DNA from: a virus | Lineage: Duplodnaviria > Heunggongvirae > Uroviricota > Caudoviricetes | Length of the DNA: 5,039 bases | Reading direction: 5' to 3' (one strand) | IMG/VR virus record: IMGVR_UViG_2778261066_000006 | Shown: positions 300 through 5,039 of the stretch, piece by piece | Position numbering within the stretch: the stretch's first letter is position 1 | How the letters are laid out: every line of letters begins with the position of its first letter | Notes under the pieces: model-generated | What the model saw: only the letters and a program-made list of their open reading frames with translations | Database searches by the model: none | What the model was told of the DNA's origin: nothing | Program-made: the position numbers and the translations under genes

Positions 300-866
300 T
301 TAGCCGTTAAGTTTGACTGCCAGACCAGCAACATATTCCCCCTGATAACGTGCGATCGACAGCTCTTCCTGGCTGGGCTGGCGTGAACCGTCACCGCCTG
401 CGATGGTGGTTGCGCCATATGGCGTTCCGCCGCGAACCTGCGAAACGTCAAATAACTCCTGGGCCGCGTAGCCAATAGGAACAATTATCATGCCGTGGTG
501 AGCAAGGGTCGTCCAGGTTGAAGTAATGGTCTGTTCCTGGCCGCCGCCGGTGCCGGTAGAGCTAAAAACGCTCGCCAGTTTGCCGTATAGCGCACCGGAA
601 GCCCACAGGCCGCCAGTCTGATCCAGGAAGGTACGCATCTGCCCTGACATATTGCCAAAGCGGGTCGGAGTACCAAAAATAATGGCATCGTAATCTGCCA
701 GTTCTTGCGGAGTTGCAACGGGGGCAGTTTGCGTTTTACCGCCTGCTTTTTCGAATAATTGCGGCTGCATGGTTTCCGGTACACGCTTAACGACAACTTC
801 CGCGCCATCAACTTTGCTTGCACCTTCAGCGACTGCGCGCGCCATCGTTTCAATATGTCCGTACAT
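300..866 (-). pseudogene. wrbA: wrbA NAD(P)H:quinone oxidoreductase (flavodoxin-like), 5'-truncated by insertion of foreign DNA; residues ~11-198 retained
   Basis: Minus-strand translation reproduces WrbA from [33 protein letters not shown]... to ...[13 protein letters not shown], with TAA stop at 300-302. The first ~10 codons (MAKVLVLYYS in E. coli WrbA as I recall it), the RBS and the promoter are absent. Sequence above 866 is AT-rich and unrelated, with an in-frame TGA at 867-869. Confidence 0.9.
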
Positions 867-2793
867 TCATTGTGGCATTGTTAAACAATTCACCCATTGA
901 ACTAAAAATTCTACTCCATCCTTCGTTAATCATATTCGGTTTATTAGGGTCACCAGAATACACAGGATTAAAGTCACTACCCACACCTACCCCAGATGGA
1001 TGCATATTAGCGTTTTTGACTACTTCCTGATTCATAAAATCCAGTGCTTTCTTCAATGCATATAAACCAAGAGTGACGCCTCTGATTTGTGGAATCATTG
1101 AAGCTAATGCTAACGCTGTTTCATAACCGTCATCAGCATAACCAATTGCAAGAGCACTACCTACACCACCAGCTACACCTTTCAGTTTTCCACCACCTTT
1201 ACCAGTAGCTACCTGACCAGCCACCTGATTAGCTCTTGTACCTAACGTTGTGATTGCTCTTGTCAGGTTCATAACCCCTGTAGTAGCACTGAATAGTGTC
1301 TTTGCAGATAACGCTATAGCAAGACCTTTGACAAAATTGATAAAACCATCACCGACTTCATCAAGTAGTTTTCGTTTAGTGTCATCAAGGCTGTAATAGG
1401 TCTTCTTAATCTGTAGAATCCAGCCTTCAAGGTGATTGTTAAAGATACGGATGTCATCTACACCAGCTTTAAGCATGTCGATAAGTCCACCGATAGCATC
1501 ACCAGCGATAGAAGAACTCATCCCCATTTCACTAAGCAGGTTACTCAGGCTGGATAAGAAGCCGTTTAACTCATCCTGTGAACCTGAGAAGATTTTCACC
1601 ATCGTATCATCCCAGTTGTTAGCCAGTTTCCCTAAAGCTGTCTGAGTGCTCTTAGCGACTTCAGCCCAGCCACCTGCTTTATCAATCATCAAGCCCATCT
1701 GTTTAGCGACTTTAGGGAGAGTATCAGCGGAAAGAATCTTCCCGTTTTTCATGGCTGCATCAAGCTCTGTAGCAGTCATACCCAATGCTTCAGCGAATAG
1801 TTTAAATGCACCTGCCATACGGTCACCTAACTGACCACGAAGTTCTTCAGCCTGAATCTTGCCCTTGCTCGCCATCTGCTCAAAAGCTTTCAAAATGCCG
1901 TTTAGCTCGTCGTTAGAAAGCCCCATTAAGCGACTCATAGCCGTTGCATTACCAAATAGCTCCTGTGTCTGTTCCTGTGACATAGAACCCTGAGCACCTG
2001 CTGCAAACTTAGCGTAGCTTGATAGCCCTTCAGAGATATTAAGACCTGTCTTGTCTGCTAAATTTCGAATAAATACCTCAGCTTCAGAGGCTTTATCACC
2101 AAGTACAAACTTAGCGGCTCTCTGTGCGGAATCTCGTTTAAGACCTGCATTCATAATGGCCTTGTAAGCGTTAAGAGCACCCATCACAGAGTAAAATGCA
2201 CCAGATAATTTAATCGCATTGCTTGCAAGATTATTAAATGCGTCGCTTGTATTGTTAATGCTGGCGGTCTTTGTCTGTGACCTGAGTTTATTCAACGTTT
2301 CACGAAGAGATTGATTTAATTTTGCAAGTTCAGCGTTAAACTTTTCACTTCCAATATTACCAGCCTTACCGCTTAAGCTGTAATACTGTGCTTTAAACAT
2401 TTTAGCCATCAGCGGATTAATATCACCAAGCTTAGACATATTCACGCTATGCGCTGCTGTGATTGCTCTGTTTCCGCTAATTCGTGGCTGTCTTGGTTGT
2501 TTTGGAGGATTAACAGTGTCATTAAATCTGGTGGTAAACTGGAAAGCTTTAGTATTTCTTGCTCTCTGTTCAATCTTGTCAAAGGTCTTATTAAACTTCC
2601 TTTCAAGCTGCCCTAAAGAAGCCGTTAAATTACTATCAAGCTGCTTTGTATTAATCCTGAAACCTTTGTTAAGGTTCTTTTCAATTCTTTGTGCTGACTG
2701 CAAAGCTGCCTTTTCAACTCTTTGCAAGCCCTTAATAACGTCCTCATTGAAGCTTAGCTCAACGATAAAACTATCAACTGTGAATTTGCTCAT
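850..2793 (-). CDS. phage tail tape measure-like protein (647 aa)
   Basis: Long ORF with SD AAGAGGTGA (revcomp of 2801-2809) 7 nt upstream of the ATG. It is alpha-helical, Ala/Lys/Gly-rich and of low complexity. The internal segment ...[57 protein letters not shown]... resembles the conserved tape-measure N-terminal-type domain. Gly-rich hydrophobic stretches near the C-terminus ([48 protein letters not shown]) are typical of tape measure proteins. Domain assignment is by recognition, not by search. Confidence 0.6.
853..870. other. Host/foreign junction inside wrbA (putative att core/boundary); exact crossover not determinable from one junction
   Basis: wrbA identity ends at ~866/867, and composition changes abruptly from GC-rich to AT-rich across this point. 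Confidence 0.6.
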
Positions 2794-2823
2794 TCATATT
2801 TCACCTCTTAAGTGTTCATATAC

Positions 2824-2875
2824 AAAAAAGGGAGAAACTACCGATATCACTCGATAATCTCTCCCGTTGATTTTT
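2824..2875 (-). terminator. Weak hairpin between the 69-aa ORF and the tape-measure-like ORF (GGGAGA/TCTCCC stem, 24-nt loop, T-runs on both sides); possible attenuator or partial terminator
   Basis: 6-bp stem 2830-2835/2860-2865, flanked by AAAAAA (2824-2829) and TTGATTTTT (2867-2875). The large loop makes it a weak candidate. Confidence 0.25.
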
Positions 2876-2892
2876 ACCCAACCAATTCTTTT

Positions 2893-3102
2893 TTAATGTC
2901 TGACAAGATAATGTAATTCCGTTTCACCTATGATTTGAGCATCAGAAGGAATACGGTCAATACACCACTTTGGAATCTTGCGTGTTTTTGGTTTGTGTGA
3001 GGTGATAACTTGACGTTTGTTTTTAATTCTTAAGGCTGGATTGGCTTGTAACTTTAAGTTTTCACAAACAGACCGAATAGTCTCTAGACGCTCTTCAAAC
3101 AT
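2893..3102 (-). CDS. hypothetical protein (69 aa), basic
   Basis: ORF with strong SD AAGAGGTGA (revcomp of 3106-3114) 3 nt upstream of the ATG, starting 23 nt after the stop of the upstream 236-aa ORF (operon-like). No recognisable domain. Confidence 0.55.
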   Translation of the reverse strand: MFEERLETIRSVCENLKLQANPALRIKNKRQVITSHKPKTRKIPKWCIDRIPSDAQIIGETELHYLVRH

Positions 3103-3125
3103 TAATCACCTCTTTTAATTCATAG

Positions 3126-3836
3126 TTAAAGTGTCTTGCTATACTTCTGAGAAATCTTAGTAAGCTGCTCAATATCAGCCTGCATAGCAATCTTCTTCTG
3201 CGTTTCATAGTCACTGATTAGTTGCTTCATAGCTCTAAGCTGGTTAGCAAGCTCTTGCTTAAATCTGTTTAATTTTTTGCTATGACGCTCAAGTAGATTC
3301 TTTTCAGCTAACTGACAAATCTCTTCATCTGTTTTATCAGACAGTAAAATATATGAACCTGTACCGCGTGAAGCTGGTCTAACATCAATTAAACGGAATC
3401 CTTCAGGGATGTTTTGAAGAACTTTTGAGATATTCTCTCTTGCTGTACCAAAACCATCATTATCTTCAACTGAGTAATATACGAATGGATTTTGTCTAAT
3501 TTCCACTTCAATATCAAAATCAGTTGGCTTTTCAGTCTCTTCAAAGTTCTTCACATTGTCGTAAGCGTCATCTAATCTAAGGCGCTGTGCTTTTAACTGT
3601 GGGTAATATTCACGCTCAAGATTAAATAGTGCTTCAGTTTTACCAATATCGGGCATCTCTTGAGGCTCAGGCGTCACAAAGATGATTTCCTTTGGTGACA
3701 TCTTTAGCGATTGCTCAAGCTTAATTCTTTCATCGTGTTCTTTACGCTGAATAGTGATAGCTGGATGTTCAGTCTGTGGCGACCAGTCACCGAAGCTATC
3801 AATCTTTTTACCGTTAATGTAAATATCGTTTGTCAT
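3126..3836 (-). CDS. hypothetical protein (236 aa), acidic/charged with predicted coiled-coil C-terminus
   Basis: ORF with SD AAGAGGA (revcomp of ~3844-3850) ~7 nt upstream of the ATG. Same AT-rich composition as its neighbours. First gene of an apparent 236aa-69aa-(tape measure) transcription unit. No recognisable domain. Confidence 0.7.
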   Translation of the reverse strand: MTNDIYINGKKIDSFGDWSPQTEHPAITIQRKEHDERIKLEQSLKMSPKEIIFVTPEPQEMPDIGKTEALFNLEREYYPQLKAQRLRLDDAYDNVKNFEETEKPTDFDIEVEIRQNPFVYYSVEDNDGFGTARENISKVLQNIPEGFRLIDVRPASRGTGSYILLSDKTDEEICQLAEKNLLERHSKKLNRFKQELANQLRAMKQLISDYETQKKIAMQADIEQLTKISQKYSKTL

Positions 3837-3865
3837 TGTTTTTTCCTCTTCTAAGCTAAAGTATT

Positions 3866-3951
3866 TCAGTTTTTAAAAAGCACACCTGACAGCCTACAAA
3901 CTTAGAAGAGACTTAAAAGGCGGTTTGCCAAGTATGCTTTTTAAAAACTGA
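3866..3951. repeat. Perfect 17-bp inverted repeat pair (TCAGTTTTTAAAAAGCA at 3866-3882; TGCTTTTTAAAAACTGA at 3935-3951) flanking a 52-bp spacer; candidate operator or regulatory element upstream of the 236-aa gene
   Basis: Directly read: the two arms are exact reverse complements. Each arm also contains the palindrome TTTTTAAAAA. The pair sits 30-115 bp upstream of the 236-aa ORF start. Confidence 0.5.
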
Positions 3952-3986
3952 ATAGCCCTAGATAATTTCTTATAAAGGGCTATTCA
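3949..3986 (-). terminator. Candidate intrinsic terminator (11-bp stem TGAATAGCCCT/AGGGCTATTCA, 16-nt loop) followed on the minus strand by G+UUUUU
   Basis: Perfect 11-bp stem read directly. On the minus-strand transcript the stem is followed immediately by GTTTTTAAAAAGC. Could terminate transcripts from the 107-aa gene, though it lies ~330 nt downstream of that stop. Confidence 0.4.
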
Positions 3987-4315
3987 TAAGGTGAAGAAAT
4001 TAAAAAAAACATCTGAAGGATTCAATAACGAATGAACAAGAGTACTTTTCGAGATGACCTCTCAGACTAACCTGAAAGGCCATGTAGCGAAAAGCATTGC
4101 ACCTTTCCAACTCAGAATATAGTTATCATCGATGTAGAGACGATTAATAGTTTAATTCAGGAAGAATTGCTCTCCCCTATATACAATCTTCTCATGCTTA
4201 AGGTTATTTGTCAACAGCTTTTTAACAGATTGGTAACATCAATTCTTATTTACTGTGTTACCCACCCAGCAACCAACAAATAGCCCTAGCAACGTCCAAG
4301 CAATTATTAAACCCA

Positions 4316-4639
4316 TTAGTGAACCCTCACAGAATCCGTAACCAGAATATTGTCAGCGTGCAAAATTACTATAGCCGCCTTGAGATATTGTTCAGGGCTA
4401 ACACTGTATTTGTTCGTTTCTTCGATAATAATACGCTTCATGTTTGAGTCTGTAATTGGTAGCATCATTCGAGGCTCGTTAAACTCCACCGACTGAATAA
4501 AGTCAGAGATGCTTTCCGCATTATCAGCCATTAACTCTAACAACTTATCAAAGTCAATGATAATACCTGCATCAGTGAAAGCCTGAATCATCATGGTGGT
4601 GTCGCTATCAACGAAAATCTGTAATTCGTAATTATTCAT
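4316..4639 (-). CDS. hypothetical small acidic protein (107 aa; ~18 Asp/Glu vs ~7 Lys/Arg)
   Basis: ORF with SD AGGAGA (revcomp of 4649-4654) 9 nt upstream of the ATG, TAA stop at 4316-4318. No recognisable domain. Confidence 0.65.
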   Translation of the reverse strand: MNNYELQIFVDSDTTMMIQAFTDAGIIIDFDKLLELMADNAESISDFIQSVEFNEPRMMLPITDSNMKRIIIEETNKYSVSPEQYLKAAIVILHADNILVTDSVRVH

Positions 4640-4910
4640 TTCTTAAAATCTCCTTTTTACCAGACCTCCTCAATCGCTCTGTAACGAGCTAAACAGTCTT
4701 TTTCAGGGGTAGCCTGTACAGTGGTATTACCCACCCTAAAATAAGGTAGTTTTTTGCGTTAGAATGCGATTGAGAGCGTCTGAGAAGCTGTTTTTCTAAT
4801 TTCTCTTAAAGTCTCGGACTTGCATAAGATTTTTTGGTCTGGTATCGGCTCTGTTACCATTTCGATGGATAATTTGCTTGTTGGATTGATAGCCATGATA
4901 AAGGAACCAG

Positions 4911-4933
4911 GGTGATGCTGCCAACTTACTGAT
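4911..4933 (+). repeat. IS1 left terminal inverted repeat (IRL)
   Basis: GGTGATGCTGCCAACTTACTGAT is the canonical IS1 terminal repeat. Confidence 0.85.
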
Positions 4934-4965
4934 TTAGTGTATGATGGTGTTTTTGAGGTGCTCCA

Positions 4966-5039
4966 GTGGCTTCTGTTTCTATTAGCTGTCCCTCCTGTTC
5001 AGCTACTGACGGGGTGGTGCGTAACGGCAAAAGCACCGC
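4966..5039 (+). CDS. insA: IS1 InsA (N-terminal 24 codons; partial at window edge), GTG start
   Basis: Translation from GTG at 4966 gives (M)[24 protein letters not shown], the InsA N-terminus including its CxxC motif. Confidence 0.85.
   Translation, partial: [24 protein letters not shown]

Follow-up and report, generated by a model that had tools for sequence, protein, structure and literature searches.

The Vibrio cholerae PLE builds chimeric tails together with the lytic myophage ICP1, for which it encodes a tail assembly chaperone (TAC), a tape measure protein (TMP), and BhuB (Mathur et al., Nature 2026, PMC12987554). In PLE11, an 80-aa protein, Rta, blocks helper tail assembly via the phage TMP. 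The choice of the satellite TMP over that of the helper is a step that PLE research has yet to explain. We analyzed a 5,039-nt stretch of viral DNA (here called the window) in which two adjacent orphan genes, p236 and p69, precede a TMP gene. PLE appears to be the closest paradigm for the element to which these genes belong. Both are small chromosomal elements with a large serine recombinase and their own replication initiator, and both carry a TMP and a central baseplate/hub protein with homologues in a strictly lytic myophage (33% and 69% identity, respectively, in the present element versus 20% and 41% in PLE). The TMP gene is directly preceded by one or two small genes in both, and the element is approximately 1/7 to 1/8 the size of the helper genome. 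However, the two have no sequence relationship, the host here is a member of the Enterobacteriaceae and the presumed helper is Felixounavirus, and the genes upstream of the TMP gene do not appear to encode chaperone-fold proteins, whereas the PLE chaperone (5IR0) has the canonical HK97-like fold. The present element, in addition, is a putative satellite. P4-like elements, PICIs, and cf-PICIs resemble the element in host range and size (P4, 11.6 kb) and are likewise integrative and replicative, but they use tyrosine integrases and temperate helpers and lack both the Felixounavirus-type TMP/hub pair and the p236, p69, and p107 families. No earlier description of the element family was found in the searchable literature, which misses most subscription journals.

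The gene order (i.e., p107, structured leader, p236, p69, terminator, TMP, Dit-like protein, and large serine recombinase) was the same in 17 of the 17 related loci compared, and p236 and p69 are the invariant core pair of this family of approximately 11.25-kb integrative elements. Elements with this order, equipped with different recombinases, occupy at least four sites in the chromosome. One circular contig of 11,253 bp corresponds to the element assembled as an excised circle; its attP holds a 13-bp core, CAATGACCCTTGA, identical to attL and attR of an integrated copy. Most of the examined elements also carry a lambda-O-like replication initiator and a Dam methylase, and the only structural genes are those for the TMP and the Dit-like protein. 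Of 5,426 complete E. coli genomes, 471 (approximately 9%) carry the pair or its relatives, and the hosts of the elements include Escherichia, Shigella, Salmonella, Citrobacter, and Kluyvera. The p236 gene is exclusively chromosomal, at one to three places per genome, each within an element, and the IMG/VR matches to the element are provirus calls in isolate genomes rather than virion DNA. These elements are discrete and integrative, with a recombinase (lost from the window copy) and a circular form; they have no full virion gene set and carry parts or signals derived from the presumed helper. They are probably phage satellites, which would be induced by Felixounavirus and packaged into virions.

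As judged by sequence similarity, the element acquired its TMP and Dit-like genes from lytic myophages of the Felix O1 type (Felixounavirus). The Dit-like protein shares approximately 69% identity with the corresponding protein of about 220 Felixounavirus genomes, its gene reaching 92% nucleotide identity over 518 nt, and the TMP is homologous to the Felixounavirus TMP with conserved termini (33% protein identity; approximately 80% over the N-terminal 45 aa). In locus L002, the phage-like sequence reaches 41 nt into the 3′ end of the chaperone gene that precedes the TMP gene in the phage. In L001 and L003, stretches of 63, 42, and 25 nt that match phage noncoding regions lie upstream of the element's Dam/Rep genes. 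The Felixounavirus order is TAC (132 aa; PF21822, Phage_TAC_15), TAC (79 aa), TMP, and baseplate protein, and p236 and p69 fill the slot of the two chaperone genes. No homologue of these helper chaperones was seen in any element; their relatives were found on phage-length or short unplaced contigs, except for one 46%-identical chromosomal match in Buttiauxella. The first-pass annotation had placed the pair where chaperones sit in a siphovirus tail module. The chaperone slot is supported by the Felixounavirus gene order, but the relatives are contractile-tailed lytic myophages, and the setting is an approximately 11-kb serine-recombinase element with only the TMP gene and one baseplate gene, not a prophage tail module.

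Table 1. Features of the window (positions counted from its first nucleotide)
Feature	Position	Strand	Remarks
wrbA remnant	300-866	(-)	Lacks first ~10 codons
TMP gene	850-2793	(-)	647-aa ORF, truncated after ~codon 642, runs into wrbA
Deletion junction	865-866		2,927 bp missing compared with the intact element of E. coli I2
Intrinsic terminator between p69 and TMP gene	2824-2865	(-)	15-bp stem, 6-nt loop, TTTTTT
p69, 69-aa orphan protein	2893-3102	(-)	Intact ORF
p236-p69 spacer	3103-3125	(-)	23 nt, holds p69 Shine-Dalgarno site (AAGAGGTGA)
p236, 236-aa orphan protein	3126-3836	(-)	Intact ORF
Structured leader upstream of p236	3837-4179	(-)	~345 nt
Conserved sigma-70-type promoter toward p236/p69	4186-4214	(-)	Sequence read
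p107, 107-aa orphan protein	4316-4639	(-)	Third conserved core gene
Probable IS1 end	4910-5039	(+)	Interrupts the element's variable region

The copy in the window has been truncated and is joined to wrbA, the gene into which elements of this type integrate (Table 1); this remnant state of the whole module had escaped the first-pass annotation. The deletion removed the 5′ end of wrbA, attL, the genes for the serine recombinase and the Dit-like protein, and the last ~80 codons of the TMP gene (726 aa in full-length elements). What is left of the latter encodes a true tape-measure homologue (PF20155, E=7e-21; phrog_4036, E=7e-92), as had been supposed for the gene downstream of the pair. The p107 gene invariably lies upstream of the leader. 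No related locus aligns past position 4910, from which the sequence is presumably an IS1 end, as judged by its inverted repeat; a repeat query, which also spanned wrbA and did not localize the repeat, matched every E. coli genome at a median of 16 places, a number expected of a multicopy insertion sequence. As the window element is dead, the pair, if it retains any activity, could only interfere with phages and not bring about transfer.

The two ORFs of 236 and 69 aa and the 23-nt gap between them were confirmed on the minus strand, both with strong Shine-Dalgarno sites (AGAAGAGGAAAAAACAATG and AAAGAGGTGATTAATG), and their AT-rich composition was borne out (37% G+C versus 56% in the adjoining wrbA remnant). 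Homologues form 3,087 (p236) and 110 (p69) clusters at 90% identity and maintain their length down to 24% identity, with median gene-wide dN/dS values of 0.33 and 0.27, respectively; thus, p236 and p69 are real genes and not chance ORFs. No sign of positive selection was seen at this gene-wide resolution. No site resembling a promoter or a terminator was seen in the spacer, which is consistent with co-transcription, and these adjacent genes are probably co-transcribed. The p69 protein is far better conserved than p236: it carries a conserved basic stretch and stays 99-100% identical between elements whose recombinases share just 30-38% identity. In p236, residues 1-92 and 203-236 are constant across alleles, and residues 93-200 form an allelic cassette.

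Database searches agreed with the first impression that neither protein has a recognizable domain. There were no matches in Pfam, PHROGs, NCBIfam, or PADLOC, among PDB sequences by phmmer, or in 50,697 phage genomes by tblastn, and megablast of the window region against phages returned nothing for either gene. A p236 profile gave a single marginal match among PDB sequences, to a designed repeat protein (E=0.0011), and all 19 matches from an HMMER scan of 1.84 billion representatives lay inside the family itself. The checks proposed at first pass, profile searches (HMMER and hhalign) and structure prediction (AlphaFold2 with Foldseek against BFVD), matched no outside family and no known fold, respectively; for the predicted p236 fold, nothing was returned at E<=0.001, nor indeed below E=0.15.

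These searches bear directly on whether p236 and p69 are highly diverged canonical tail assembly chaperones of the gpG/gpGT type. The pair is the exact positional equivalent of the Felixounavirus chaperones relative to the TMP and baseplate genes and shares their two-gene layout, but this identity is scarcely credible: there is no Phage_TAC Pfam or PHROG chaperone match, BLASTP against the helper chaperones found nothing, and hhalign against the PF21822 profile gave probabilities of 0.3% (p236) and 0.2% (p69). Family HMMs of the pair, run on the complete set of 1,263 ORFs from one Felixounavirus, gave no score better than E=0.87. The lengths (236 and 69 aa versus 132 and 79 aa) and the predicted architecture, a coiled-coil hairpin in p236, also differ. 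Finally, the absence of an overlapping -1 frameshift arrangement, already remarked on at first pass, was upheld by the 23-nt gap, by stops 2 and 5 codons upstream of the ATG in the p69 frame, and by the lack of a slippery heptamer near the p236 end. The first-pass annotation had named homology to a tail or chaperone family, combined with synteny confined to tail modules, as what would refute its view of the pair as unexplained; synteny with the tail genes is indeed strict, but no such homology was detected. Strict synteny fits a pair that works with the TMP and a pair that simply belongs to the element core equally well.

The suggestion that the pair is accessory cargo (e.g., a toxin-antitoxin or generic defense system) did not survive the comparison of loci, nor did the related reading of p236 as a transposase, the name that PGAP gives to many p236 alleles; both are hardly believable. 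The pair always occurs inside a serine-recombinase element and never elsewhere, as part of the core in 17 of 17 loci and outside the variable region, and no transposase, toxin, or defense family was matched in Pfam, NCBIfam, or PADLOC. A scan of 11 diverse p236 members found no transposase family in Pfam or NCBIfam, and no catalytic domain (DDE/RNase-H, HUH, serine, or tyrosine) was matched. The predicted p236 fold is not RNase-H-like but a coiled coil with an alpha/beta tip of about 60 residues, and terminal inverted repeats with multiple copies at unrelated sites were not found. The RefSeq name "transposase" is accordingly unsupported.

In the AlphaFold2 model of p236 (pLDDT 79), helices 66-101 and 170-219 form an antiparallel coiled-coil hairpin that bears a small alpha/beta domain (residues 106-166) at its tip; this domain contains the invariant residues D127-G128-x-G130 and P144-E145-G146. 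In the predicted p69, an N-terminal helix (residues 2-17) is joined through a basic disordered linker to a C-terminal beta-alpha-beta-beta mini-domain (residues 40-68). The mostly long helices of the p236 model recall the capsid-size-redirecting scaffolds Sid of P4 and TcaP of PLE, which are likewise satellite encoded, largely helical, orphan-like, and approximately 240 to 300 aa long, and which act on helper structural proteins. Its length is close to that of Sid (244 aa); TcaP is 53 aa longer than Sid. A scaffold would also suit an element of 11.25 kb that is about one eighth of the 88-kb helper genome and has no recognizable capsid-remodeling gene, and the diversification of p236 alleles independently of the element TMP fits a helper-encoded target. 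Nevertheless, we consider a scaffold function unlikely. The predicted p236 forms a closed hairpin capped by a globular domain rather than an extended filament, and its gene is located in the tail block. Furthermore, the PDB profile search at E<=10 returned no scaffold protein from a library that may lack Sid and TcaP, and the BFVD search likewise gave no significant match. Some satellites (PICMI) manage without capsid remodeling.

Homology offers no support for any biochemical function of the pair. Our preferred, if tentative, reading is that the element is a PLE-like satellite of Felixounavirus and that p236 and p69 together form a satellite-specific factor for diverting the virion assembly of the helper, with the tail step as the most probable point of action. 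The element would build chimeric tails, placing its own TMP and hub inside helper-made tails. The p236 protein would serve as an adaptor or holdase: its constant base (the N-terminal 92 and C-terminal 35 residues) may dock on a conserved partner, and its coiled-coil tip (residues 93-200), which is exchangeable, may contact a target that varies and is probably encoded by the helper. In this scheme, p69 may be a small conserved basic co-factor. The p236 model, with its constant ends and variable middle, is counted in favor of the adaptor. Counted against the proposed role are the HK97-like fold of the PLE chaperone, of which the pair shows no sign, the terminator after p69, which sets the pair at least partly apart from the TMP gene in transcription, and the lack of co-variation between p236 and TMP alleles. 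A more specific form, in which the pair is a non-chaperone-fold system that puts the satellite TMP and hub into the contractile tail of the helper, is rather doubtful. The pair is nevertheless the obvious candidate for the choice of the satellite TMP over that of the helper, since nothing else in the tail block is both conserved and specific to the element.

We found no co-variation of p236 alleles with those of the TMP, Dit-like protein, p69, p107, or recombinase, and one p236 allele group occurs with TMPs just 43-55% identical to one another. Such a pattern speaks against a chaperone that recognizes the variable TMP region, and it is weak counterevidence to allele-specific TMP binding. The lack of co-variation weakens not only the idea of a dedicated chaperone but also the idea that the pair supplies the excisionase, or recombination directionality factor, of the large serine recombinase. 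Excision by serine integrases requires such a factor, the known ones are unrelated orphans of about 60 to 255 aa, and none is annotated in the element. However, p69 is nearly invariant across recombinases with divergent sequences and different att sites, and p236 alleles ignore recombinase type; a directionality factor is therefore very improbable. The PLE directionality factor is helper encoded.

The persistence of an intact pair in the window despite the loss of the recombinase, the hub gene, and the TMP C terminus fits a benefit independent of transfer. One or both proteins might thus be pure anti-helper inhibitors like PLE11 Rta, protecting the host population and dispensable for transfer. 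By description, p69 resembles Rta, a small satellite-restricted orphan with no predictable fold or function that is tied to the TMP pathway; the cassette-like variable tip of p236 and the pair's own promoter and terminator would also suit an inhibitor. Yet Rta is a lineage-specific accessory encoded outside the PLE tail cluster, whereas p69, adjoining the TMP gene, and p236 are universal core genes inside the tail block. With the gene-wide dN/dS values (0.27-0.33), no sign of positive selection, and no PADLOC match, a purely inhibitory role also seems unlikely.

The terminator between p69 and the TMP gene, which had been overlooked at first pass, ends approximately 30 nt ahead of the TMP ATG within the 99 nt that separate the two genes. 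It was kept in all 16 related loci in which it was compared, with at least five different stem sequences and compensating changes, and the pair is thus at least partly a separate transcription unit. Upstream, the promoter combines a -35 TTGACA (4214-4209) with an extended -10 (TGAGAAGAT) across a 17-nt spacer; its sequence is TTGACA-N17-TATAAT in L008, and the -10 is CATAAT in L002 and L005. The leader is strongly structured (MFE -114 kcal/mol, z = -6.9), with a terminator-like hairpin (3986-3949), a hairpin with 27-nt arms (3952-3865), and a 10-nt segment (3910-3901) complementary to the p236 Shine-Dalgarno region (3855-3846). Rfam returned only two sub-threshold chance matches for it, and leader or antisense matches to the phage genome were at chance level. 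Under the preferred reading of a tail-redirecting factor, transcription would start at the conserved promoter, pass the terminator-containing leader, and stop at the conserved terminator after p69, so that the TMP and hub would be made solely by read-through.

The same signals could instead indicate that the pair is itself regulatory, with p69, alone or with p236, controlling read-through of the leader terminator and the pre-TMP terminator or activating late genes, as a timer for the TMP and hub. Conserved terminators bracket the pair, the TMP gene in the window has no room for its own promoter (~30 nt), the leader can sequester the p236 Shine-Dalgarno site, and the conserved linker of p69 is rich in arginine and lysine. 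We regard this as quite unlikely: no helix-turn-helix, zinc-finger, or known RNA-binding fold was predicted, a 236-aa coiled-coil protein with a hypervariable tip would be an odd regulator, and the leader sequence differs between elements with near-identical p69. A conserved TTTTTGTAT stands after the p69-TMP terminator; it was considered as a helper late-promoter motif and rejected, as the motif is not enriched in the phage.

If the more specific, non-chaperone-fold form of this role is correct, the pair would correspond to the "unknown and probably conserved mechanism" by which TMPs are selectively incorporated, which the PLE work did not resolve, the exchangeable p236 tip would set helper specificity, and a formerly unrecognized family of satellites of Felix O1-like lytic phages would be present in approximately 9% of complete E. 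coli genomes. Under the preferred reading, common PLE-like satellites in E. coli and Salmonella would target Felix O1-type lytic phages, which serve in Salmonella typing, biocontrol, and therapy and of which the efficacy and host range could be altered by these elements, and chimeric-tail assembly would become open to study in the best available genetic system. Whatever the mechanism of the pair, thousands of RefSeq proteins called "transposase" appear to be misnamed.

Judging from related loci in complete E. coli genomes, the context of the p236-p69 pair (ORFs of 236 and 69 aa) is an ~11-kb mobile element and not a prophage tail module. The first-pass annotation had likened the position of the pair to that of tail assembly chaperones in siphovirus modules; the adjacency to a tape measure protein (TMP) gene stands, and the setting is a compact serine-recombinase element. 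The element contains, in order, a large serine recombinase gene (convergent with the rest), a gene for a Dit-like baseplate protein (262 aa; PF21821), the TMP gene (726 aa at full length), p69, p236, an RNA leader 5' of p236, p107 (a 107-aa ORF), a variable block of small ORFs, a lambda-O-like replication initiator gene, and a Dam methylase gene. A comparison of gene neighborhoods, as the annotation had proposed, showed that the order p107, leader, p236, p69, TMP was kept in all 17 independent loci examined. Insertions were found at wrbA, at yecE, in the tonB-yciI interval, and near mdtH/lpxL, each site having its own recombinase type (30 to 38% identity between types). The pair or a relative occurs in 471 of 5,426 complete E. 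coli genomes, always on the chromosome and in no more than three places per genome. Direct sequence evidence for the excised form is a circular contig of a related element (L021 1-11280; Logan SRR22802630; 11,253 bp, with a 27-nt terminal overlap), whose attP core, CAATGACCCTTGA, matches the attL and attR cores of an integrated copy (L019 4432-15697) of exactly equal length; the element therefore excises. A small resolvase/invertase-type serine recombinase (183 to 191 aa) lies near the end opposite the large recombinase in L003, L006, L008, and L017-L021. The distant element L008 has an extra 91-aa gene between p236 and p69 (10697-11184), and its p69 homolog, 68% identical, was missed by the source annotation.

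On sequence evidence, p236 and p69 are real but orphan genes. Most of what had been noted from the DNA alone held up: the ORFs are adjacent, with a 23-nt gap; both have Shine-Dalgarno sites, reading AGAAGAGGAAAAAACAATG and AAAGAGGTGATTAATG; the pair is AT rich (37% G+C, versus 56% in the wrbA part of the window); the overlapping -1 frameshift arrangement is absent, the p69 frame having stops 2 and 5 codons upstream of its ATG; and neither protein matches a domain in Pfam, PHROGs, NCBIfam, or PADLOC. Homologs of p236 form 3,087 clusters at 90% identity and those of p69 form 110 (every one "hypothetical"), all enterobacterial, with median dN/dS values of 0.33 and 0.27, respectively. An HMMER scan of 1.84 billion representatives with p236 returned only 19 hits, the full-length relatives being 54, 36, 30, 28, and 25% identical; PDB sequence searches with the pair gave no meaningful hit, and tblastn against 50,697 phage genomes gave no match. 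Many p236 alleles bear the NCBI (PGAP) name "transposase," and others in the family are called "hypothetical protein." We found no evidence in support of the former name, and it is hardly credible that p236 is a transposase or that the pair is cargo. The AlphaFold2 model of p236 (mean pLDDT, 79; >85 for residues 65 to 215) predicts an antiparallel coiled-coil hairpin (helices 66 to 101 and 170 to 219) tipped by an alpha/beta domain of ~60 residues with invariant D127-G128-x-G130 and P144-E145-G146 motifs; a Foldseek search of this model against BFVD found nothing below an E value of 0.15.

Features of the window, whose relevant genes are all on the minus strand
Feature	Position	Strand	Remarks
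wrbA remnant	300-866	-	Flavodoxin-like FMN reductase domain; first ~10 codons missing
TMP homolog ORF, 647 aa	850-2793	-	PF20155 (E=7e-21); TIGR02675; phrog_4036 (E=7e-92)
Terminator (hairpin and T-run)	2865-2824	-	After p69
p69, 69 aa	2893-3102	-	
p236, 236 aa	3126-3836	-	
Noncoding stretch, 479 nt	3837-4315		Between p236 and p107
Leader region	3837-4214	-	~345-nt leader after the promoter
Terminator-like hairpin	3986-3949	-	In the leader
TTGACA promoter element	4214-4209	-	Aimed at the pair
p107, 107 aa	4316-4639	-	
Apparent IS1 end (probable left end)	4910-5039		Identified by the IS1 inverted repeat; no related locus aligns past 4910

The conserved promoter aimed at the pair consists of TTGACA, a 17-nt spacer, and TGAGAAGAT, the -10 element being TATAAT or CATAAT in relatives. 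The leader that follows has a predicted folding energy of -114 kcal/mol, versus -76 +/- 5.5 kcal/mol in shuffled controls (z = -6.9), and contains, besides its terminator-like hairpin, a second hairpin with 27-nt arms and a stretch of 10 nt that is complementary to the Shine-Dalgarno region of p236. The leader matched no Rfam family and may act as an attenuator or as a regulatory small RNA, in the manner of SviR of PLE (a Vibrio cholerae satellite) and the CI RNA of P4. An intrinsic terminator (-16 to -24 kcal/mol) follows p69 in all 16 loci inspected, where its stem takes five or more sequences with compensating changes. Together with the promoter and a p236-p69 interval free of promoter-like or terminator-like sites, this makes the pair plausibly a single transcription unit. 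The terminator ends ~30 nt before the TMP ATG in the window, leaving no room for a TMP promoter there, and expression of the TMP and Dit-like genes appears to depend on read-through. That the pair itself regulates read-through is quite improbable.

Several lines of similarity connect the element to Felix O1-like phages. Its Dit-like protein is ~69% identical over the full length to a protein of ~220 such phages (Felixounavirus and other Ounavirinae), which are ~87-kb strictly lytic myophages infecting Escherichia, Salmonella, Citrobacter, and Erwinia. In L002 (18807-19592), the Dit-like gene shares 91.9% nucleotide identity over 518 nt with Felixounavirus phage HMD-P10 (7837-8354), implying that element and phage have recently exchanged genetic material. 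The TMPs are also homologous (33% overall, ~80% in the N-terminal 45 residues) and have a C-terminal LLSSS(F/Y)PE motif in common. Upstream of the Dam/Rep genes in the intact reference element L001 (22977-23233) and in L003 (27455-27588), matches of 63 nt (86%), 42 nt (83%), and 25 nt (100%) to phage noncoding DNA (HMD-P10 74749-74809 and 66038-66202) may represent borrowed regulatory sequence, such as phage promoters or other helper signals.

The phage gene order is sheath, tube, tail assembly chaperone (TAC; 132 aa; PF21822), second TAC ORF (79 aa), TMP, and baseplate protein; thus, the pair occupies the exact slot of the phage chaperones. Position, for which the first-pass annotation had invoked such chaperones, agrees, and the other features that could be tested do not. 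The order with TMP was conserved, but no homology to tail or chaperone families was found. BLASTP of the pair against the helper (presumed Felixounavirus) chaperones gave nothing, hhalign of the family profiles against the Felixounavirus chaperone profile gave probabilities of 0.3% and 0.2%, and HMMs of p236, p69, and p107 matched none of 1,263 phage ORFs (best E value, 0.87). The architecture predicted for p236 is a coiled-coil hairpin; the helper chaperone is a Phage_TAC_15 protein in Pfam, and the PLE chaperone has an HK97-like fold. A diverged canonical chaperone is extremely improbable. No relative of the helper chaperone was detected in any element examined; those found lie on phage-length or short unplaced contigs, with the exception of a 46%-identical chromosomal hit in Buttiauxella. 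The elements therefore seem to lack a canonical chaperone, and their TMP would be handled by the highly conserved chaperone of the helper or by something else. In L002, phage similarity extends 41 nt upstream of the TMP start, into the 3' end of the second chaperone gene, indicating that the captured block began inside that gene and that the chaperones were not retained.

Pairwise identity matrices of 12 to 13 loci revealed reassortment of discrete alleles in every module of the element. p236 varies most (24 to 89% identity to the window copy), and p69 remains 87 to 96% identical where p236 is only 24 to 25% identical. One p236 allele group (82 to 89% identical internally) pairs with three TMP types that are 43 to 55% identical to each other, and a single TMP type (95 to 96% identical) pairs with three p236 groups; this argues against p236 reading the variable middle of the neighboring TMP. 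Nor did p236 co-vary with Dit, p69, p107, or the recombinase in these loci, which argues against a recombinase-specific excision factor and leaves a recombination directionality factor very unlikely. Within p236, residues 1 to 92 and 203 to 236 are conserved (78 to 93% mean pairwise identity), and residues 93 to 200, i.e., the tip domain together with the distal coiled-coil half, form an exchangeable cassette (55 to 72%), a pattern consistent with an adaptor whose docking end is constant and whose recognition end varies. p107 also belongs to the invariant core, as its third gene, and its alleles fall into groups of their own (26 to 100% identity); in family searches, p107 gave only a PADLOC match to a restriction enzyme model, weak and below threshold (E=0.004).

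The closest documented system is PLE, which is integrated by a large serine recombinase, parasitizes the lytic myophage ICP1, and has its own genes for TAC, TMP, and baseplate hub; its chimeric tails exclude the phage TMP and hub, and the selective incorporation of its TMP is still unexplained (PMC12987554). On other elements, that paper says no more than that tmp genes occur in some cf-PICIs and Vibrio elements (PMC12987554). The E. coli element follows the same logic with unrelated sequences. Its biology as an element is well supported, and from the shared logic we infer a life cycle as a PLE-like satellite of Felixounaviruses. We tentatively favor, at less than even confidence, a role of the pair in diverting the assembly of helper virions, the tail being the likeliest stage; p236 would act as a noncanonical adaptor or holdase and p69 as a small cofactor. 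PLE11 has in addition an 80-aa orphan, Rta, that acts via the phage TMP to block phage tail assembly; a purely inhibitory, Rta-like pair is unlikely, as is a capsid scaffold resembling Sid of P4 or TcaP of PLE. Satellites with a tail module are already known. The literature searched, which included LeGault et al. and lay mostly outside subscription journals, contained no description of this element family or its proteins, and the family, its helper, and the nonchaperone pair appear to be new.

The window itself holds a remnant. In an alignment with E. coli I2, positions 75 to 866 match the yccJ-wrbA flank and positions 865 to 4650 match the element, starting inside the TMP gene; 2,927 bp have therefore been lost. 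This clean deletion (865-866) joins the TMP gene after approximately codon 642 to codon ~10 of wrbA and removed the 5' end of wrbA, attL, the genes for the recombinase and the Dit-like protein, and the final ~80 codons of TMP, so that the 647-aa "TMP" ORF is a fusion artifact with a 4-residue foreign tail. On the other side, similarity to L001 ends at 4650 and the element is broken by what we take, from its inverted repeat, to be the end of an IS1 copy, probably inserted in the variable region. p236, p69, and p107 are intact in a copy that, as predicted from these losses, is immobile and unable to produce a full-length TMP. The yccJ-wrbA flank shares only ~91% identity with E. coli, and across the 5,426 E. 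coli genomes no match to the whole window exceeds 94%; a non-coli Escherichia or a close relative is a possible host.
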